Origin: an uncultured Chloroflexia bacterium | GTDB taxonomy: Bacteria; Chloroflexota; Dehalococcoidia; DSTF01; JALHUB01 | DNA length: 64,000 nucleotides | Direction of reading: 5' to 3' | Assembly: GCA_963703345.1 (NCBI GenBank) | Contig: OY969814.1 | Coordinates: forward strand, 640,001-704,000 | Part shown: positions 1 to 52,737 of the stretch, in pieces | Layout: the number at the start of each line of letters is the position of its first letter | Position numbering within the stretch: position 1 is the stretch's first letter | Translations under genes and position numbers: made by a program | The notes under the pieces: generated by a model | Told to the model about the DNA's origin: nothing | The model's database searches: none | The model's input: only the letters and a program-made list of their open reading frames with translations

Positions 1-771
1 CGGCAAGTGGGGGAGGTCACTCATGGTCACCCACGGCCACTCACGCTTCGGATCGTATGCGTACTGACCCATCCTGAGAATCAGCACGTTGACCGCTGCC
101 TTGATCCACTCAATTTCCTCTGGGGTGTGATCACGAGGCACGAGTGGCATCTTGCGTGCTGTTTGCTCGTTTCCGACTTCGGTACTAAGGTGGCCCAGCT
201 TGCTAAGTACGTGCAATGCCACAGAATAGCGATTCGACGCCGCAGACCGGCCCCCTGCTCTTCTTTGGAGAACTGTCAGGCAGAAATAGGCCATGTCGGT
301 CAGCCGCACCCGGTGATCTAGATAGCTGCGAAACAGAAACCACATGGTCTCGACGTCCGGAGAGATGTCGAAGTCGACAGGCGGATCTGGATACTTCCTG
401 CTGGTGACGCTGAGTGTGGGGGGCAAGGCAACGGCCACCGCGACGGCCACAGGAACATGCACGATTTGGGGACTTCCCGGCGGTGGCGGGTCGCGATCAA
501 TAATTTTCGCCGACTCGAACTCAAAGTGGAAGCCAGAGGTGCCCGACCGAAGGGCCGTTCCCATCTCCCACCTGTCCAAATACGTCTTGACGCCTTGTCG
601 TGCGTCTTCTTCGGACGGGTAATGCGTCTGCATTTCGAAGGTCGCGATGTCGTCGCGCAGGGTCAGGCGGAAGTCATTGGTGTTCCACTGGACTGGCGGT
701 GGATTGTCAAAAATAATGCCTGCTGCGGCGATGGCTCGATAGCGCAGCAACTGGACGTGTGGATCTCTCAT
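1..771 (-). CDS. Hypothetical protein, cargo of the integrated element; runs off the left edge of the window
   Basis: Manual translation from ATG at 771 (MRDPHVQLLRYRAIAAAGIIFDNPPP...VTMSDLPHLP) is open for 257 codons to position 1. Absent from the ORF track because there is no stop in the window. Confidence 0.75.
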   Translation of the reverse strand, partial: MRDPHVQLLRYRAIAAAGIIFDNPPPVQWNTNDFRLTLRDDIATFEMQTHYPSEEDARQGVKTYLDRWEMGTALRSGTSGFHFEFESAKIIDRDPPPPGSPQIVHVPVAVAVAVALPPTLSVTSRKYPDPPVDFDISPDVETMWFLFRSYLDHRVRLTDMAYFCLTVLQRRAGGRSAASNRYSVALHVLSKLGHLSTEVGNEQTARKMPLVPRDHTPEEIEWIKAAVNVLILRMGQYAYDPKREWPWVTMSDLPHLP

Positions 772-818
772 CGAATTGCATCCCTTCCGCGCTATTCTGC
801 GCTTCCGCTCTAGGCGCG

Positions 819-1451
819 TCAAGGGGCTGTAACGCTTAGGCCGGCCGAAAGCTCCTTGTCGCCCGCAAGCGCTAGCGCCTTGTGGCGGCGCAGGTGACAG
901 GGCCGACATCTAAGTTCAAAACCTTCAGGCCAGCAGCCGTTCTCGTCGTGGTAGCGCACCATAGCCCGGTAGAGGCGGGTTCCGACACCATCGCGTAGAG
1001 GCCCAGCAGGATATCGGATGTCGCCCCGACCATAGATGTGATCTAGGTGGTCGCCCCGTGGCCCGCATCCGTTCTGGCCGACCGGAACACCACAGTCGAC
1101 GCATTTGCCCCCGTAGCCGGCGAGCACCTTAGAGCGGACGGCCGCGTTGCGCGCCCGATCCCGCTCCCGCGCGCCCTCCAGATCAGCAGTGCGGTGGGCC
1201 CGGTTCAGTGCGTTCCTATGCGTCGGCTGACATTCTGGGCAGTGTAAGGGAGGCCGGGTCGTCGATATCATACGAGCGCCGCAACCAACGCATTCGGTGA
1301 GTAGGTTGGCCCCGTAGCGCTTGCGCTTCAGTGTGTTGTCTCGCTTCCGCTGACACTCTGGACAGCGCCACCGGACGCCCGTTGCTGGCTGGACGATAGG
1401 CACGCCGCAATCTAGGCAATGAGTAGGGCGGGCGACCTTCTTGTAAGACAT
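819..1451 (-). CDS. Zinc-ribbon / HNH endonuclease-like protein
   Basis: Multiple CxxC pairs, then YGGKCVDCG...HLDH...LRCRPCH. Probable start is the ATG of MSYKKV at 1451. Confidence 0.7.
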   Translation of the reverse strand: MSYKKVARPTHCLDCGVPIVQPATGVRWRCPECQRKRDNTLKRKRYGANLLTECVGCGARMISTTRPPLHCPECQPTHRNALNRAHRTADLEGARERDRARNAAVRSKVLAGYGGKCVDCGVPVGQNGCGPRGDHLDHIYGRGDIRYPAGPLRDGVGTRLYRAMVRYHDENGCWPEGFELRCRPCHLRRHKALALAGDKELSAGLSVTAP

Positions 1452-1644
1452 CTTCTCATAGTGAGTAACGAACGAGTGGCCCCAATGTGTCGAAGAAAAG
1501 GGGCAGATTGCTAGGGGGTAGGTTGCGCCTAGCGATAGACCGAGTAATAAGTGGCACCGACCGGCGTTGTTGTAGGTGATCGCGCATCCGAGACGCCCTT
1601 CAGAGCTGCTAGGTTGTGCCGATGATAGAGGTGAGGGAATCAGG

Positions 1645-3366
1645 ATGAAGAAGGCATTGGGCATCGCGAGGGTTTCGACTGAACGGCAGTCGGCAAATGA
1701 TAGAGTATCGCACGCCGAACAAGCCGCCAAGATTCGCGCGTGGGCAGAGGCCAACGGCTACACTTGCGTCGGCGTGCTAGAAGAGACCGTCAGCCGTAAC
1801 AAGGAACTCGACCCGGACGATCACGATAGCCGTCCGATATTCTGGCAGGCCTGGGATCGCTTGAAGTCCGGCGAGGTCGATGCGCTGGTGTTCTGGGTGC
1901 CCGACCGATTCTGCGCTGGCCAAGGCGGGGCCGACTTCGTCTACTGGCTCGCCCAGAGCCGCAAGTACGGCGACGGGATCCGATTCACGGAGAATGAGCC
2001 GCCACGCGACGGCGCTTACGCGACCATCATGAACGCCGTCGCCGGCTCTCAGGCCCATGCTAGCTGGGATCGGCTGATCGAGATTATGAAGGCCGGGAGG
2101 GAAGGCCACGCCAAGCGCGGCGAGTTCGCCGGCGGCGCATTGCCCTTCTGGATTAAATGGGTAAAGCCGGTCAAGAACGACGATGGCTCGGTGACAAGAG
2201 GCTACTTCGAACTCAAAGCCGAAGAGTCTGCCTTGATGCACCGAATTATCGACCTGTTTGAGGGCGGCCTCGGTAGCGAGAAAATTGCGAACATCCTGAC
2301 CGATGAGCGTGTTCCTACGCCGTCCAGCCGCAGTCCCCAGTGGCGCGAGCACAGCAAGAAGCGCCGGGCGAATGTCTGGGACGGTGCTACCATCCTGTCC
2401 TGCCTCCACAATCGGGCCCTCTGCGGCGAATACATCTTCGGGGGCCGGCCCCGCGGCAAGCTCGACACGCGGGCCCAAGAGCCGGTCATCGTCCCGGTGC
2501 CTCCACTGATCACTAGTGAGCGCTTTGACGCCGTCCAGCAACAAATGATGCGCAATAAGAAGTCTGGAACGGCGCGCCAATCGAGCGGCTGGCCGCTACA
2601 GGGGCTGATACTGAGCGAGGCGTGCGGATACCTCTACTCGGCGCGCACGGATGGCCGCACACAGCGCCGTGTTTACCGCTGTCCCGGCAGACAGGCCAGG
2701 CGGCACCGTGTGGACGGGAATACGTGTCACTGCCCGCCTTTGCCCGCTGACGGGCTTGAGCGGGCGGTTGTAGCGGCCGTGCGCCGGCTACTACAGGATC
2801 CAGACGCACGCCGCAAGGCCGTGGGTGACTACATCGCCAGCCTAGAAAGCCGGAAGGCGGTGCTGGCGGGCCAGTTGGGGCCGCTCGATACTGACCTCGA
2901 CCGGATCCAGACGGCCATCGATGACATGACAGTTGCGGTATCCCTAGGCCGGTTGTCGCGGGATAGGTACGACGCGGAAGTGGCTAAGCTGGAGGCCGAA
3001 CGGATAATGCTGCAGCACCGGCGGGAGAATTTCGGAGCCGTCGAGCGCGAGCTTCGGCAAGTCGAGGAATCGCTGGCCGATATCAACAGCGCGATTGATG
3101 ATGGGCTACTCCACATCAGCGTCGTAGCGCACGGCGGGCACGGGAAGCCTAGCGCCATTGCGTGGCTGGACACCGACTCGGACGATTTCGTGCTGCGGCA
3201 AGAATCCTTTGCCGACCTAGTGCGCCGGCTACGTCTTCGGGTCGTGGTGCGCAGCGATGGCCGCATCGAGATCACCGGGCTACTCCAGCCCCTCGCGGTC
3301 ACGCTTCCTGATGGCCCCAGAACTGCTTCGGCTCCCGCAGGTTCGGATAGACGACGAAGGGGATGA
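1645..3366 (+). CDS. Large serine recombinase (integrase)
   Basis: N-terminal ARVSTERQ catalytic motif, recombinase domain, Cys-containing ribbon (ACG..YRC..CHC) and coiled coil. ATG at 1645 follows a GAGGGA RBS. Confidence 0.92.
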   Translation: MKKALGIARVSTERQSANDRVSHAEQAAKIRAWAEANGYTCVGVLEETVSRNKELDPDDHDSRPIFWQAWDRLKSGEVDALVFWVPDRFCAGQGGADFVYWLAQSRKYGDGIRFTENEPPRDGAYATIMNAVAGSQAHASWDRLIEIMKAGREGHAKRGEFAGGALPFWIKWVKPVKNDDGSVTRGYFELKAEESALMHRIIDLFEGGLGSEKIANILTDERVPTPSSRSPQWREHSKKRRANVWDGATILSCLHNRALCGEYIFGGRPRGKLDTRAQEPVIVPVPPLITSERFDAVQQQMMRNKKSGTARQSSGWPLQGLILSEACGYLYSARTDGRTQRRVYRCPGRQARRHRVDGNTCHCPPLPADGLERAVVAAVRRLLQDPDARRKAVGDYIASLESRKAVLAGQLGPLDTDLDRIQTAIDDMTVAVSLGRLSRDRYDAEVAKLEAERIMLQHRRENFGAVERELRQVEESLADINSAIDDGLLHISVVAHGGHGKPSAIAWLDTDSDDFVLRQESFADLVRRLRLRVVVRSDGRIEITGLLQPLAVTLPDGPRTASAPAGSDRRRRG

Positions 3367-3991
3367 AGCCGTACGGGTTCGCCTTCTGGTCGAGGCGGAT
3401 GTTGTCGACCCACAGCTCGAACTCCTGCTCCGTCCAGACCTCGACGACCTCCGACCCATTCGACCTCGCCTTCGCCGGCGTGACGCCGTACAGCATCTCC
3501 GCCTCTTCCGGCAGCAGCGTGTAGCGACTGGCGACGCGCCACACCCGCGACGTGTCGTCGCCCAGCCACCAGACGAAGATGCCCTGCACGTCCGGCGCCG
3601 ACACGCGCACCCGCCGCTCCGCCGTGTCCCAGGTCACCTTGAAGACGCCGTCGCCGAGGACCGACGCGTCGAGCTCCGTCTCCAGGTCGAGCTGCGCGAG
3701 CTGGTTCGCCTCGTAGACGTCCCGCAGCGCCTTCTCCGCCCGACGCGCGGCGTCCTGCGCCTCCGCCGACTCGTCCAGCGGGTCGACGGCGAAGCTCAGC
3801 CCCGACATCATGTATGACACCGTCTTCTCGATGAGCGCCTTCGCGTAGTTGAAGACGAGCCGCCGCTCACGACGGTTCCGCTGGTTGTCGGGCCACTGCT
3901 CGCCCTGGTAGAAGGCGAGGTTGTCGGCATACGCCCGCAGCCGCGTCTTGTCGAGGCTGGCGAGCTGTTGGGGAAGCGTGAGTCCGGTCAT
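3299..3991 (-). pseudogene. Phage portal protein, 5' part only (interrupted)
   Basis: AFYQGEQW, LVFNYAKALIEK, LGDGVFKV and NPYGFIPFV motifs of SPP1-like portals. Only 230 aa, ending at the integrase junction. Confidence 0.8.
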
Positions 3992-4017: not shown

Positions 4018-4320
4018 TTACCCACAACGTCTGAGAATGCGGAAAACCGTCCGCCGTGACAGCGCGAATCGCCGCGCCAGGGCGTCGATGGGCAGGCGCT
4101 CGCAGCGTCGCAGTCGCGCAATCTCCTCGTCGCGGGGCAGCGTGCGCAGGCGTCGCGTGCCGCCCGGCAGGTCGTAGCGACACAGCGGCAGGCGGCAGTT
4201 GAGGCAGGAGGGCGATAGGTCGCAGCCCTCGTCGCGATAGCGCACCTGCTCCGGCAGCGCATCGACGACCGACTGCGCTTCATCGCCAGCTTGGGGCAGG
4301 TCATCCAGTTGCGCCGTCAT
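4018..4320 (-). CDS. Cys-rich protein with C-terminal helix-turn-helix
   Basis: YRDEGCDLSPSCLNCRLPLC followed by IDALARRFALSRRTVFRIL. ATGA overlap with the terminase stop. Confidence 0.75.
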   Translation of the reverse strand: MTAQLDDLPQAGDEAQSVVDALPEQVRYRDEGCDLSPSCLNCRLPLCRYDLPGGTRRLRTLPRDEEIARLRRCERLPIDALARRFALSRRTVFRILRRCG

Positions 4321-5737
4321 CTCGAGCGTCCCTCCCCCGCCTCGCGAAGGCGACCCCGCGCCGTCCGCGGCCTGCTGTCCGCCGCCGCCTCCACGGTGAG
4401 CGCCGCGCTCATCAGGTAGTCGTCGTGTCCCTCCGTCGGGTCGACGAAGAAGTTCATCGTTTGATTGGCGCGATAGGCGACGCGCGCCGCCTCCGCCTGC
4501 CGCCGGAACTCGCCGTATTCGTCCGAGGCGTCGCCGGCGTACATGCGCAGCCGGCCGCCGTTCACCGCCGCCAGCAGCGCGTAGCCCAGCCGCGACTTGC
4601 TTTCGCCCGTGAAGCGGAACGGCCGCACGACCTCCTGCCCCAGCGCCGCCGCCAGAAGCCGCGACAGCGTCTCGCCCAGGCCCGTCGCGTCCACCGCGAC
4701 CCGCCGGACGCGCCACGCGCGCCCCAGCACGTTCGACAAGACGCGCCAGCAGCGCGTCGTGTGGCTCGTCCGTCCAGGCGTAGTGCTCGACGATCTCGAT
4801 GCTCGGCTCCTGCACGAGGGCGGCGCGCGACGGATGCGACACGCGGGCAATCGTCAGCACCGTTGCGTCGCGACGCGGGGAGGCCGCCGCCGACGGGTCC
4901 AGCGCCGCGCCGGCGATGTCCAGCCCCGCGACGTACGTCTCCCCCGGCGCCGGCGTCGATTGCCGTCCGTGCGTACCCTGGAGTTGAGCGCGTTGCTGCC
5001 GGTCGAAAAGCCGCCCGCCGCCGTGCAGCGGCCGCAGGCAGTATTGCGTCAGAAAGAGCGGATGGCTCTCGCCCAGGCGCAGTCGCTCCGCCTCCACGAA
5101 CCGTCCGTAGGCCGCGTTGTGCTTCGCGACGCGCTGCCAATCGAATTCGAAGTGGCGGCGGACGCCGTCGCGACGCTCCGCTTCCAGGTTGGCCTGCTTC
5201 GTCCGCTCCAGCAGCGTGCGGTCATCCCAGGCAGTGCCAGAGAACCGTCGTCGCGCCGGTCGAGGCTGCCATGGGACGGAACTCCTTGTCGAACTTCTCC
5301 GCGTCGACGTCCTGCGCCTCGTCCACCTCCAGCAGCACCTGCGCCGTGTGCCCGACGACGTTGCTCTCGCGCTCCGCCGACAGGAAGAGCTGCCGCGCCT
5401 TGCCGACGCTGATCACCCGTCCCTGCTGCCGCGTCGAGATCGACGCCAGACCAAGCTCGCCGAGGCGCGCCCAGAGGCGTCGCATGCTTATGCGGCACTG
5501 CGGCTCGAACGTGGGCGCGCACTTCACGGAGTCGACGTCGCGCAGCATGTTCGCTACCAGCAGAAACGCCTCCAGTTGCGCCGAAAGCTCGTTCTTGCCG
5601 CCCTGTCGTGCCATCTCCACCGAGATCGTCAGCCCTTTGCGATTGAAGACGCTGTTCAGCACCGCGCGCGCCACTTCGACCTGGTAGGGGCGCAGGCGGC
5701 ATCGGACCAACGCTGTCGGCTCGGCTGTCGCGACCAT
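4317..5737 (-). pseudogene. Terminase large subunit-like gene split by two frameshifts (about 5239 and about 4732)
   Basis: LRPYQ, MARQGGKNE (Walker A-like) and LLEVDEAQD (Walker B) in the first frame. AGLDIAG, VAVDATGLG and HDDYLMS nuclease motifs lie in two further frames. Confidence 0.8.
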
Positions 5738-5955
5738 CAGCGCACCAGCCCCAGCACGAACTGCGTGATTACGACGCCGATGATCAGGAAGATGAGGCCG
5801 TTCACGCGCCCCTTCACCTCGTCGAGCTGCTTCTCCAGGTTGCGCAGCCGCTCCTCGACGACGGCGTGGAAGGCGGCGCTTGGAGACGCGCCCCGACGCA
5901 CGGTCCGTCGCTGCGGCCGCGCCTGCCCGCTAGTCTTCGCTTCCGGCGATGTCAC
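5737..5955 (-). CDS. Small coiled-coil protein with C-terminal TM helix
   Basis: EERLRNLEKQLDEVK followed by a hydrophobic tail. Overlapping operon arrangement. Confidence 0.65.
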   Translation of the reverse strand: MTSPEAKTSGQARPQRRTVRRGASPSAAFHAVVEERLRNLEKQLDEVKGRVNGLIFLIIGVVITQFVLGLVR

Positions 5956-6298
5956 CTTCTCCCTCCGGGCTCATCATCCTGCCGTATTCCTCGATCGTCG
6001 CCCTGACGCTCTCGGAAAGTTCGGCTTTCGCGTCCTTCGACAGCCGGTAGCTGGCGGAAAGCGCCTTCACCAGCATCTCGACCCCCTTCAGCATCAGCGT
6101 CATGTTTTCCGGATGCTCCTCCAGCGCCCGTCGCAGCCGCAGTCGCAGCACCGCGATCTCCTGGTCGAGGCCCTGCACTTCGCGCGCGACCGCCAGTGCG
6201 ACCTTGTCGCCCTCCGGCACCGCCGAGTCGTAGAAGCCTTCGACGTCCGACGGCCGCCGGCAGCGACGTCGCGGGCGCTTCTTGCTAGCGCCGGTCAC
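5930..6298 (-). CDS. Hypothetical protein, possible terminase small subunit
   Basis: GFY...GLDQEIAVLRLRL helical pattern, located upstream of terL. Function is inferred from position. Confidence 0.55.
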   Translation of the reverse strand: MTGASKKRPRRRCRRPSDVEGFYDSAVPEGDKVALAVAREVQGLDQEIAVLRLRLRRALEEHPENMTLMLKGVEMLVKALSASYRLSKDAKAELSESVRATIEEYGRMMSPEGEGDIAGSED

Positions 6299-28161: not shown

Positions 28162-31100
28162 AATCGCGTCCTTCGCAAAAGCGATCTCACCCGTCGCAGC
28201 ACGCGTCGGCCTCGGACTACGTCCCTCAGCCGTTTCCGACCCTTCACACGCACACCCGCCGGACCGACGAAGAGTCCGACCATTCCTGTCAGCAGCACGG
28301 CATTAGCCGCGTAGCGCGGCGCGGCGTCCGACAGCGAGGCAGCCGCTTCGGGAGCAGACACATAAACCGCTCCGCCCGCTGTCCCCGCGTTGATCGCCTT
28401 GCCGAAAGGATCGACCAGCGCTGACGCTGAGAAGTCGAGGGAGCTTGTGCCCACCCCCGAGGCCTGAAAAGTGATTTCCGCCAGCAGGCCCGTGCCACTG
28501 GCTCCGGGCGCGCCGCCGCTGCTCAAGCAACCGAAGCGGACCTGCCCGACGTCAACCGTTGGAGCTGGGCAGAACACGGGACGCCCCGTGCTTCCAAGGA
28601 AAGTACCATTGCTGATTCCCGAAAGCACCAGGACGTTCGGATCGAACTGAAGCGTAAACTCATATGCTCCAACGTTTGCAACCCCGTTTGCCACCACGTC
28701 CACCGTGAAATAGTCGCCCACCGTTACGTTCTGCGCCGCCGGATCGATCAGAACGGCTCCCGGGCCCAGCGCTTGCGGTGCGAGGACCAGCCCAAGAAGA
28801 GGGTCTTGGGAATTCTGGGTCTGGGCCGAGCCGGACCCCAACGCCGCGTTGTAGAACGTGGCGATCTGCCCGCGCCAGGCACCGGATGTGCCGACGGTCG
28901 CAGCTGTGGAGTATGTTCCTGTCGAGGTCACCCGGCGGTCCGCGCCGGCATAGGTGAGAACGGAGGTGGTCCCGGCCTGGAAGTCGGCCTCTTCAGTGAA
29001 CGAATTGGTCCAGCTACCAAAGCTGGTGGCGGCGCGGATGTCCATTCCCACAACCAGCAACTCATTTGCATGCGTGGTGGTGACGCTCCCCGAGGACGGG
29101 GTTGTGCCAGTGCCGTTCGCCGAGCTCGTCCGATCGAGCGTGTCCACACCCCTGTACTCGTAGATCTGCAGTCCAACGACCGAGCTGCTGTTCGCCAGAG
29201 TCACCGTCACCGTTCTGGACTCGCCGCTGCCGGCTATCTTGTAGAAGATGGCCTGGCACGGCACAGTGCAACTGCCCCCGCTTTGGTTGATGGCGGTTGA
29301 CCAGCCGCTTGGCTGATTGATGGTGCTGGTCGTGCTGGCACCCACGATGGCGACCAGCAGGTTGCCGGCGACTGGCGTGTTGGTGAAAGTGGCTGAGACC
29401 GTGTTCGTATGGTTTCCGCTGCCAGTGGCCTTCTGGACAAGCGTTGCAGTCGGCGTAGGCGTGAACGTGCTGGTCGGCGTTGGCGTAGGCGTCCAGGTGT
29501 TTGTCGCCGTCGGCGTCCACGTGTTGGTCGCAGTCGGCGTGTTGGTGTTCGTTGGCGTCGGCGGTATCGGCGTGTTGGTGGGCGTTGGCGTAGGCGTCCA
29601 GGTGTTTGTCGCCGTCGGCGTCCACGTGTTGGTCGCAGTCGGCGTGTTGGTGTTCGTTGGCGTCGGCGGGACCGGCGTGTTCGTCGGTGTGTCCGTCGGC
29701 GACGGCGTGTAAGTGGGGGTCTCCGTCGGAGTGCCCGTAGCCGTCGGGGTCTCCGTCGGCGTTTCCGTGGGCGTATCCGTAGCCGTTGGGGTCTCGGTCG
29801 GAGTCTCTGTCGGCGTCTCTGTAGCCGTGGGAGTCTCCGTCGGGGTGTCCGTCGGCGACGGCGTGTAAGTGGGGGTCTCCGTTGGAGTATCCGTAGCCGT
29901 CGGGGTCTCCGTCGGCGTTTCCGTGGGCGTATCCGTAGCCGTTGGGGTCTCGGTCGGAGTCTCCGTGGGCACCGGTGTGGCCGTCGGGGTGTCCGTCGGC
30001 GTCTCTGTAGGAGTCTCTGTCGGCGTCTCTGTAGCCGTGGGAGTCTCCGTCGGGGTGTCCGTCGGCGACGGCGTGTAAGTGGGAGTCTCCGTTGGAGTAT
30101 CCGTAGCCGTCGGGGTCTCGGTCGGAGTCTCGGTAGGCGTGTCCGTGACCGTCGGCGTCTCAGTTGGCGTCTCTGTAGGAGTCTCTGTGGGCACCGGCGT
30201 GGCCGTCGGGGTGTCCGTCGGCGTCGGCGTGTAAGTGGGAGTCTCCGTTGGAGTATCCGTAGCCGTTGGGGTCTCGGTCGGAGTCTCCGTCGGCGTTTCG
30301 GTGGGCACCGGCGTCGCGGTGGGCGTGTCCGTAGGTGTCTCCGGCGGCGTCTCCGTCGGCGTCTCAGTGGGCGTATCTGTCGCCGTAGGGGTGTCCGTCG
30401 GCGTCTCAGTGGGCGTATCTGTCGCCGTAGGGGTGTCCGTCGGCGTCTCAGTGGGCGTATCTGTCGCTGTGGGCGTGTCCGTCGGCGTTTCGGTGGGCAC
30501 CGGCGTCGCAGTGGGCGTGTCCGTAGGTGTCTCAGTCGGCGTATCTGTCGCTGTGGGCGTGTCCGTCGGTGTTTCGGTGGGCACCGGCGTCGCAGTGGGC
30601 GTGTCCGTAGGTGTCTCAGTCGGCGTATCTGTCGCTGTGGGCGTGTCCGTCGGCGTCTCAGTTGGCGTGTCTGTGACCGTGGGCGTGTCCGTCGGCGTCT
30701 CTGTCGGCGTATCTGTCGGCGTCGGCGTATCGGTTGGCGTGGCAGTCGGCGTACGGGTCGATGTCGCCGTTGGCGTGGGCGTATCGATCGGCTTGACGAA
30801 TACCGTTCCGCTCCCGACCGCGGCGTTGACCGCCCTGCCCAAAGGATCGGCCAGCGCGAACGCTGAGAAACCAAGAGAGGTTGTTCCCGCGCCGGACGCC
30901 TGGAAAGTGATTTCCGCCAGCAAGCCTGTGCCACTGGCACCCGGCGCAGTGCCGCTGCTTACGCAACCGAAGCGGATGTTTCTATCGGTAACCGTTGGAG
31001 CCGGGCAGAAAACAGGACGTCCTGTGCTTCCAAGGAAAGTACCATTGCTTATACCCGAAATCACCAGGACGCCAGGGTCGAATTCAAGCGTAAACTCATA

Positions 31101-52475: not shown

Positions 52476-52565
52476 GGAGAGGTGTCCGAGTGGTTTATGG
52501 TGCCGCTCTCGAAAAGCGGTGTCCTGGCAACGGGACCGGGGGTTCGAATCCCTCCCTCTCCGCCA
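52476..52565 (+). tRNA. tRNA-Ser(CGA)
   Basis: GGAGAGG acceptor stem, CCGCT-CTCGAAA-AGCGG anticodon arm, long variable arm, GGTTCGAATCC and a CCA end. Confidence 0.95.
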
Positions 52566-52649
52566 TCGACAAGAACGTAGCCGAGACTTTCTAGTCTCGG
52601 CGTCTAATTCACTGGTCGAATCTTGGAGCCCTGGCCGGGGCACTTGGGC

Positions 52650-52737
52650 GGAGAGGTGCTGGAGTGGCCGATCAGGCACGCCTGGAGAGCGTGTGACCTT
52701 TCGGGGTCCGTGGGTTCGAATCCCACCCTCTCCGCCA
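52650..52737 (+). tRNA. tRNA-Ser(GGA)
   Basis: CACGC-CTGGAGA-GCGTG anticodon arm, variable arm, T-loop and a CCA end. Confidence 0.95.

Follow-up and report, generated by a model that had tools for sequence, protein, structure and literature searches.

A portal gene that ends early beside the gene for a large serine recombinase raises the question of what interrupted it, and of whether the interruption serves as a switch, as an attack on the gene or as a mere landing site. We examined such a locus in a 64,000-nucleotide stretch of DNA (the window; G000:640001-704000, where G000 is a single 2.28-Mb contig). The earlier note on this DNA had read it as a serine-recombinase element integrated inside the portal gene, either a parasite disabling a packaging system or an excision-controlled switch. 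Positions below are those of the window unless marked as genome positions.

1..3313, no strand: right part of the element (whole element genome 629065-643313 plus one core, 14,259 bp)
1..771, minus: cargo ORF, 264 aa, continuing past the window edge, no Pfam or PHROG family
819..1448, minus: cargo ORF of 209 aa, zinc-finger/HNH-like, with no more than weak PHROG matches (E 2e-7 to 3e-3)
1645..3366, plus: 573-aa large serine recombinase in an open frame, convergent with the portal gene
3299-3991, minus: portal 5' half, 230-aa ORF, Pfam SPP1_portal (E 1.7e-10)
3314-3323, minus: att core at the 5'-half junction, 10 bp, GTTCTGGGGC
4018..4320, minus: host-module HTH gene with a Cys motif, weakly matching the late transcriptional activator phrog_836
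4317..5737, minus: host-module gene for the large terminase subunit, split over three frames
5737..6298, minus: pair of short conserved module genes (72 aa and 122 aa), without a family match
Genome 628410-629054 (L001:4410-5054), minus: portal 3' half, 214 codons, SPP1_portal (E 3.6e-7)

A precise, frame-restorable insertion in the portal gene

The portal ORF of the window ends in FWG-HQEA-stop and consists of 226 portal codons (3314-3991) followed by four element-derived codons and a stop, in keeping with the claim that it is truncated: it encodes 230 aa, against 440 aa for the rejoined gene. The 3' half, expected by the earlier note beyond the left edge, does lie there, 10.9 kb to the left of the window; it was recognised by ORF reading, and a tblastn search of the 5' half against its own genome returned no second portal piece. 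The core GTTCTGGGGC occurs only 12 times in the whole genome on both strands, with a second copy 14,259 bp away from the one at the 5' half (genome 629055-629064, L001:5055-5064), and the two copies sit exactly at the points where portal homology stops and resumes. Joining the halves in silico at this core yields a 440-aa portal ORF with 0 internal stops, colinear with the portals of intact relatives at up to 92% identity. With both halves, the 10-bp core and the stop-free joined frame in hand, the proposed element inside the portal gene is borne out, as a precise insertion from which the frame can be restored.

Homologous portals do not end naturally at this position, the case that the earlier note had named as speaking against it: the site is uninterrupted in 27 of the 29 loci of relatives (L004-L032), the other two being G003, which carries the same insertion, and L025, where the contig ends after the site. 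The break had also been said to fall exactly where the recombinase gene ends. The two do adjoin, but the recombinase ORF runs past the junction, its last ~53 bp being portal antisense DNA, so that host DNA supplies its tail; the protein has 573 aa in the integrated state and a predicted 577 aa in the circular form. Symmetry scoring for the crossover dinucleotide reached 10-11 of 25 at best and singled out no position.

An assembly artefact has a negligible probability, although G000 is a single contig of unstated sequencing technology, and run X1, from which we took further contigs, may be from its own source sample. One X1 contig crosses the left junction without a mismatch, and the right junction recurs in G003 and L066, independent records that refute an artefact. 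A second X1 contig leaves out exactly 14,259 bp, but we did not accept it as a sign of excision; it probably belongs to a relative and not to excised G000, judging from a piece of the same depth (3.67) that ends at the joint and shows 12 differences in ~160 nt. No attP joint is listed among the X1 contigs.

The element and the module that it interrupts

The element reaches 10.9 kb further left than the window edge and has a GC content of 0.607, against 0.644 for the genome. Its recombinase carries Resolvase (PF00239), Recombinase (PF07508) and zinc-ribbon (PF13408) domains, all above cut-off, and matches phrog_95 (E 4e-57). Besides variable cargo, the remaining genes include a winged-helix gene resembling phage rep-O/HTH_36 (atlas 0.95 to replication protein O), a topoisomerase-like gene (phrog_6247), a small HTH gene preceded by a near-consensus promoter, and genes for an RRM protein, a coiled-coil protein of 225 aa, an S78 prohead protease and a RAMA-domain protein. 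Six elements have the RAMA-domain gene close to their recombinase; in that of G008 it was not found. Among the element ORFs of G000, Pfam and PHROG detected no capsid, portal, terminase or primase, and no AlpA. A rep-initiator-like gene, a head protease and a coiled coil, yet no capsid, suggest that the element would depend on some phage for transfer.

The nearest named atlas cluster of the coiled-coil protein is P4 Psu (0.89, below the threshold of the tool), and its predicted model (pLDDT 90.8) matches generic helical hairpins only. Structure comparison did not establish an identity with Psu or Sid: Foldseek gave 0 hits at E<=0.001, the best VIA match (Z 10.4) was among generic hairpins, and neither protein is present among the structure matches listed. 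By blastn, the element and the module have no DNA segment in common. A pattern search found no LexA-like box in the element, and a box with a single mismatch lies ahead of the scaffold and capsid genes. Viral-contig scans with the recombinase, the protease and the capsid-site recombinase of G467 gave 0 matches. At the winged-helix genes of the element we noted a perfect 30-bp palindrome (L001:7533-7562) and a 22-bp inverted repeat (L001:7004-7051), candidates for an origin or operator, and two cargo genes are each preceded by a 35-bp repeat with a shared promoter-like site (window 793-827 and L001:15313-15347).

The interrupted gene belongs to a phage-derived module of the host. On the other side of the insert the module continues with a scaffold-like gene, a capsid gene (PF05065), an SU10-type adaptor, a 660-aa gene and a small membrane gene, and we read the gene next to it as dnaN. 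The 122-aa gene right of the portal resembles a small terminase and may be one. Portal matches, mostly one per genome, occur in 54 of the 61 nearest genomes, in 78 of the 93 genomes of the order, and in 238 of the 401 genomes from the class and 47 of the 401 from the phylum, and a gene so widespread in the class and mostly single-match fits a domesticated, phage-like head and packaging particle system. The module genes often lie in two loci.

In G000, the terminase has suffered a 2-bp deletion near 5238 and a 1-bp insertion near 4733 (assembly sequence, with G002, G003 and G008 as reference), and it is intact at 473 aa in G002 and G003. Its dN/dS from G000 to relatives is 0.14-0.15, like the 0.17 between intact copies, so that the damage appears to be recent. 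No frameshift was found in the capsid, adaptor and 660-aa genes of G000 or in the neighbouring housekeeping genes compared.

Several features lie near the module or in the window as observations in their own right. A methyltransferase and a XamI-type restriction endonuclease directly follow the portal 3' half, outside the element (L001:1809-4393, genome 625809-628393), a spot that holds different genes in G002, L072 and L073. Two small complete genomes, G114 and G188 (L050, L051), have a truncated portal fused toward the 660-aa gene, with the intervening genes missing, which is module decay. The window also contains two tRNA-Ser genes unrelated to the element (52476-52737) and a segment of strong AT skew (about -0.4) and positive GC skew that is unlike its surroundings (29001-31000).

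Recurrence across the recombinase family and the class

The recombinase has eleven relatives at 48-82% identity. Portal codon 226 is used by related recombinases (48-72% identity) in G003, L066, G823 and L072, as established by DNA, and, as read from portal-derived recombinase tails, in P0002 and probably P0009. Among eight loci from metagenome and viral scans, three adjoin this same codon (L066, L072, L073), two adjoin another gene, methyltransferase-like by eye (L067, L068), and three have another or an unreadable context. Elements with the same core genes also occupy non-portal sites in G006 and G008 (2 of the 92 other genomes of the order), and the G008 portal is intact. Together with the sister recombinases at another gene, these placements indicate that the portal is not the family's only target.

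The element is antisense to the portal in G000, G003 and L066 and co-oriented with it in G823 and L072, and the arm beside the portal 3' half is alike in both orientations (14 of 16 bases, by eye). G823 carries a related 15.1-kb element with its own terminase at the same codon, and the surrounding module has kept its terminase, capsid and downstream genes intact; no remnant of that element's terminase was found in the G000 element. Five of the seven genomes of the same genus with this part of the portal lack the insert (G001, G002, G004, G007 and G008). Between G000 and G003, dS is 0.69 for the recombinase, above the 0.19-0.33 of three host genes, which suggests that the two elements probably arrived separately. 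The G003 recombinase lacks residues 1-157 and with them its catalytic domain, and neither the portal 3' half nor the capsid gene was found in this 95% complete genome.

Long insertions interrupt the portal in 4 of 78 genomes of the order (G000, G003, G021 and G467). In the class, where only genomes with partial or multiple portal matches were followed (58), G229, G330 and G130 were added. The insertions by portal codon are:

Codon ~211: G229 (L041-L042, G229:C166:3160-33790), a 30.6-kb complete-looking prophage
Codon ~214: G021, 14.5 kb
Codon ~222: G130; G330 (31 kb, no serine recombinase left)
Codon 226: G000, G003
Codon ~257: G467, 23 kb

The prophage in G229 has its own terminase, portal, capsid, tape-measure, head and tail genes. 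Contamination is 6% in G130, which also has an intact portal copy, and 9% in G229. The G330 insert is a cargo island (L039-L040, G330:C17:21180-52500) with RHS-repeat, YcaO/TfuA and radical SAM genes, and its att arm resembles that of G130.

The capsid gene, surveyed in 80 genomes, is interrupted as well. In G021, G029 and G467 a serine recombinase adjoins the break, and in G026 and G460 the insert lacks one; capsid breaks fall at codons ~35-39, ~65 and ~175 (L119:1493-11770 of G021, L120, L121, L122). G021 and G467 have both genes interrupted. Other apparent portal splits were rejected, being frameshifts or adjacent pieces in G026, G029, G462, G465, G436 and G443 and contig ends in G282, G211, G457, G448 and G043; the portals of G282 and G457 end at codon ~222, possibly at hidden inserts, and were left out of the counts.

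At least five recombinase lineages interrupt the portal or capsid gene. They do not group together, and we rejected a single origin of all module-targeting recombinases, which was recovered in 0 of 200 bootstrap trees (several branches are long). One clade (support 99-100) unites the recombinases at the G029 capsid, G130 portal, G467 portal and G467 capsid genes (L120:9523-10725; L046:296-1837; L059:10163-11746; L122:6661-8154), at four different sites in two genes; the G000 recombinase falls outside it. None of eight further recombinases from 15 genomes joined this clade, with 13 shorter ones left out. That four of four members sit in module genes suggests a tropism beyond sequence conservation and makes this clade the strongest lead for one, in a count that carries an ascertainment bias, since the search for members started from the module.

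When 15-codon windows are ranked by DNA conservation across 25 intact portals, four of the five insertion sites fall within the top 5%; that of G000 ranks at 32%, outside the most conserved windows. The terminase has a long insertion in 0 of 82 genomes, the fetched split cases being contig ends, and htpX has none among the 150 of 172 matches listed, three partial, uninspected ones included. Both genes are conserved too, but less than the portal, and we counted their freedom from insertions against a reading based on conserved targets. A third candidate control, radA, was of no use, since just 2 of the 93 genomes have it. Within that set of 93, match coordinates place a break near codon 350 of comM in at least 18 of 85 genomes (17 if the unpublished G045 is set aside). 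Fisher tests give p=0.054 for portal against terminase and p=0.003 for comM against portal, among kin that are not independent. Among 29 background recombinase loci, four adjoin comM and none a module gene. In this order, comM stands out as a strong hotspot for recombinases (L075, L092, L098, L103).

Readings of the locus and known systems

The reading that we favour, with a probability of about 0.6, is a horizontally moving, satellite-like element on a highly conserved, dispensable site, with a host switch unlikely. The recombinase would join attP to attB within the 10-bp core, integration would cut the portal in two, and precise excision would restore the frame; high conservation and dispensability would account for the use of this site. 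Decay of the rest of the module may have followed the blocking of the portal. We count in favour of this reading the reuse of codon 226 by the recombinase family together with its non-portal sites, the separate arrivals in G000 and G003, the four portal sites in highly conserved DNA, the more frequent breaks in comM, the frameshifted G000 terminase, the decayed G003 element and the double interruptions in G021 and G467. Besides the uninterrupted terminase and htpX genes, the clade with four of four members in module genes and the moderate conservation rank of the G000 site count against it. The G000 copy appears grounded.

That the elements are selected to knock out the module is unlikely as the leading explanation, and may coexist with the favoured one. 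Production of module particles could end in lysis of the producing cell, the particles could rival phage heads, or they could bring in DNA that lacks the element and so cure the cell of it. The hits by five or more recombinase lineages and the complete-looking prophage with its own head genes inside the G229 portal are in line with such a conflict, as are the enrichment of recombinase targets in competence genes, described in PMC10083194, and curing as a reason for interrupting competence genes, proposed in PMC12378983. But the function of the module is a prediction, and a terminase hit would disable it equally, yet none was found in 82 genomes; the insertion sites track DNA conservation, and once the module is knocked out, a second hit as in G021 and G467 brings no further effect. 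The parasite disabling a packaging system fits as a consequence of the insertion; selection to disable would go beyond what is shown. Slightly less probable than such a conflict, and improbable in itself, is a satellite embedded in its helper, which upon induction would excise, restore the portal and be packaged in module particles, much as proposed for helper-embedded PICIs (HE-PICIs) and the late genes of prophages. Its size of 14-15 kb, head protease and rep-O-like gene, the sub-threshold proximity of the coiled coil to Psu, the clade with four of four members in module genes and the G823 element, co-oriented and with its own terminase in an otherwise intact module, all point that way. Against this, the G000 terminase is broken and the element has none of its own, it lies antisense to the portal and shares no DNA segment with the module, the same family uses non-module sites, and the S78 protease hints at a head of another type, as the module genes scanned included no protease.

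A host-programmed switch of the skin/SPbeta type, in which excision would license particle production, is very improbable. The insertion can be undone precisely and in frame, the recombinase gene is intact, and the portal halves show no excess of amino-acid change, all of which speaks for a switch. The patchy distribution, the several sites and separate arrivals, the broken terminase, the decayed G003 copy and the lack of a LexA-like box in the element by pattern search argue otherwise, and with the insert missing in five genomes of the same genus, the excision-controlled switch of the earlier note is unsupported in G000. A more ambitious version of the satellite idea strikes us as doubtful: the class's serine-recombinase elements might be embedded parasites of domesticated GTA-like particles, silencing the system, then excising, rebuilding it and leaving inside, with one clade having re-targeted module genes four times, G000 grounded and G823 possibly still working. 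If it were true that elements ride module particles, they would be satellites of a host-owned particle system. Returning to the moving element on a conserved site, the analysis maps a new, predicted attB/attP pair and a recombinase family, and genomes with and without inserts provide natural knockouts for module function. The recurrence and the module-targeting clade outweigh this single G000 copy.

In skin/sigK and SPbeta/spsM, a serine recombinase splits a gene that can be restored in frame. The G000 element likewise combines a serine recombinase with a 440-aa frame that precise excision would restore, but differs in its lack of lineage-wide fixation and in a pathway broken elsewhere in the genome; neither a developmental signal nor a directionality factor was identified here.

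Gene transfer agents, defined in PMC9662315 to include the packaging and delivery of random host DNA, resemble the module in their terminase, portal, capsid and adaptor of tailed-phage origin; the module, mostly single-copy and widespread in the class, is by these genes a candidate system of this kind. IME1 of Dehalococcoides, described as filamentous-virus-like and free of tailed-phage hallmarks (bioRxiv 10.64898/2026.09.15.751708), is not the G000 element.

Closest in placement are the HE-PICIs, 10-20-kb elements which, as described in PMC10111431, sit in a phage late gene (portal, capsid) restored only on excision, with an identity block of ~10 bp, several sites and late genes, and an integrase clade of repeated tropism. 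The G000 element shares the position inside a portal late gene, the 10-bp core and, across relatives, the several sites and a clade of integrases with repeated tropism. It departs from them in its integrase, since theirs is a tyrosine Phage_integrase clade, for which no G000 element ORF gave a match, and here several serine lineages are involved; in orientation, since they are co-oriented and G000, G003 and L066 are antisense, though G823 and L072 are co-oriented; and in its target, a conserved chromosomal module. The AlpA and primase of HE-PICIs were not detected in G000, where a small HTH gene and a rep-O-like gene are present. The element is HE-PICI-like in placement and falls outside the group on integrase type and, in G000, orientation.

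The nearest parallel for convergence is comM, a known target on which, as PMC10083194 describes, diverse recombinases converge; comM is hit in this order too, and here the target is instead a phage-derived structural gene. The supplements searched of that paper make no mention of portal, capsid, Dehalococc or Chloroflex, and the literature searched, mostly outside subscription papers, gave no description of the module, its interruption or a satellite of host-owned particles. With its domains in one open frame, a shared core and empty sites in relatives, the G000 element is a large serine recombinase element splitting a conserved gene. Such targeting has so far been described for competence genes and prophage late genes, and a widespread, uncharacterised phage-derived module here joins them as a recurrent target of unrelated integrases.
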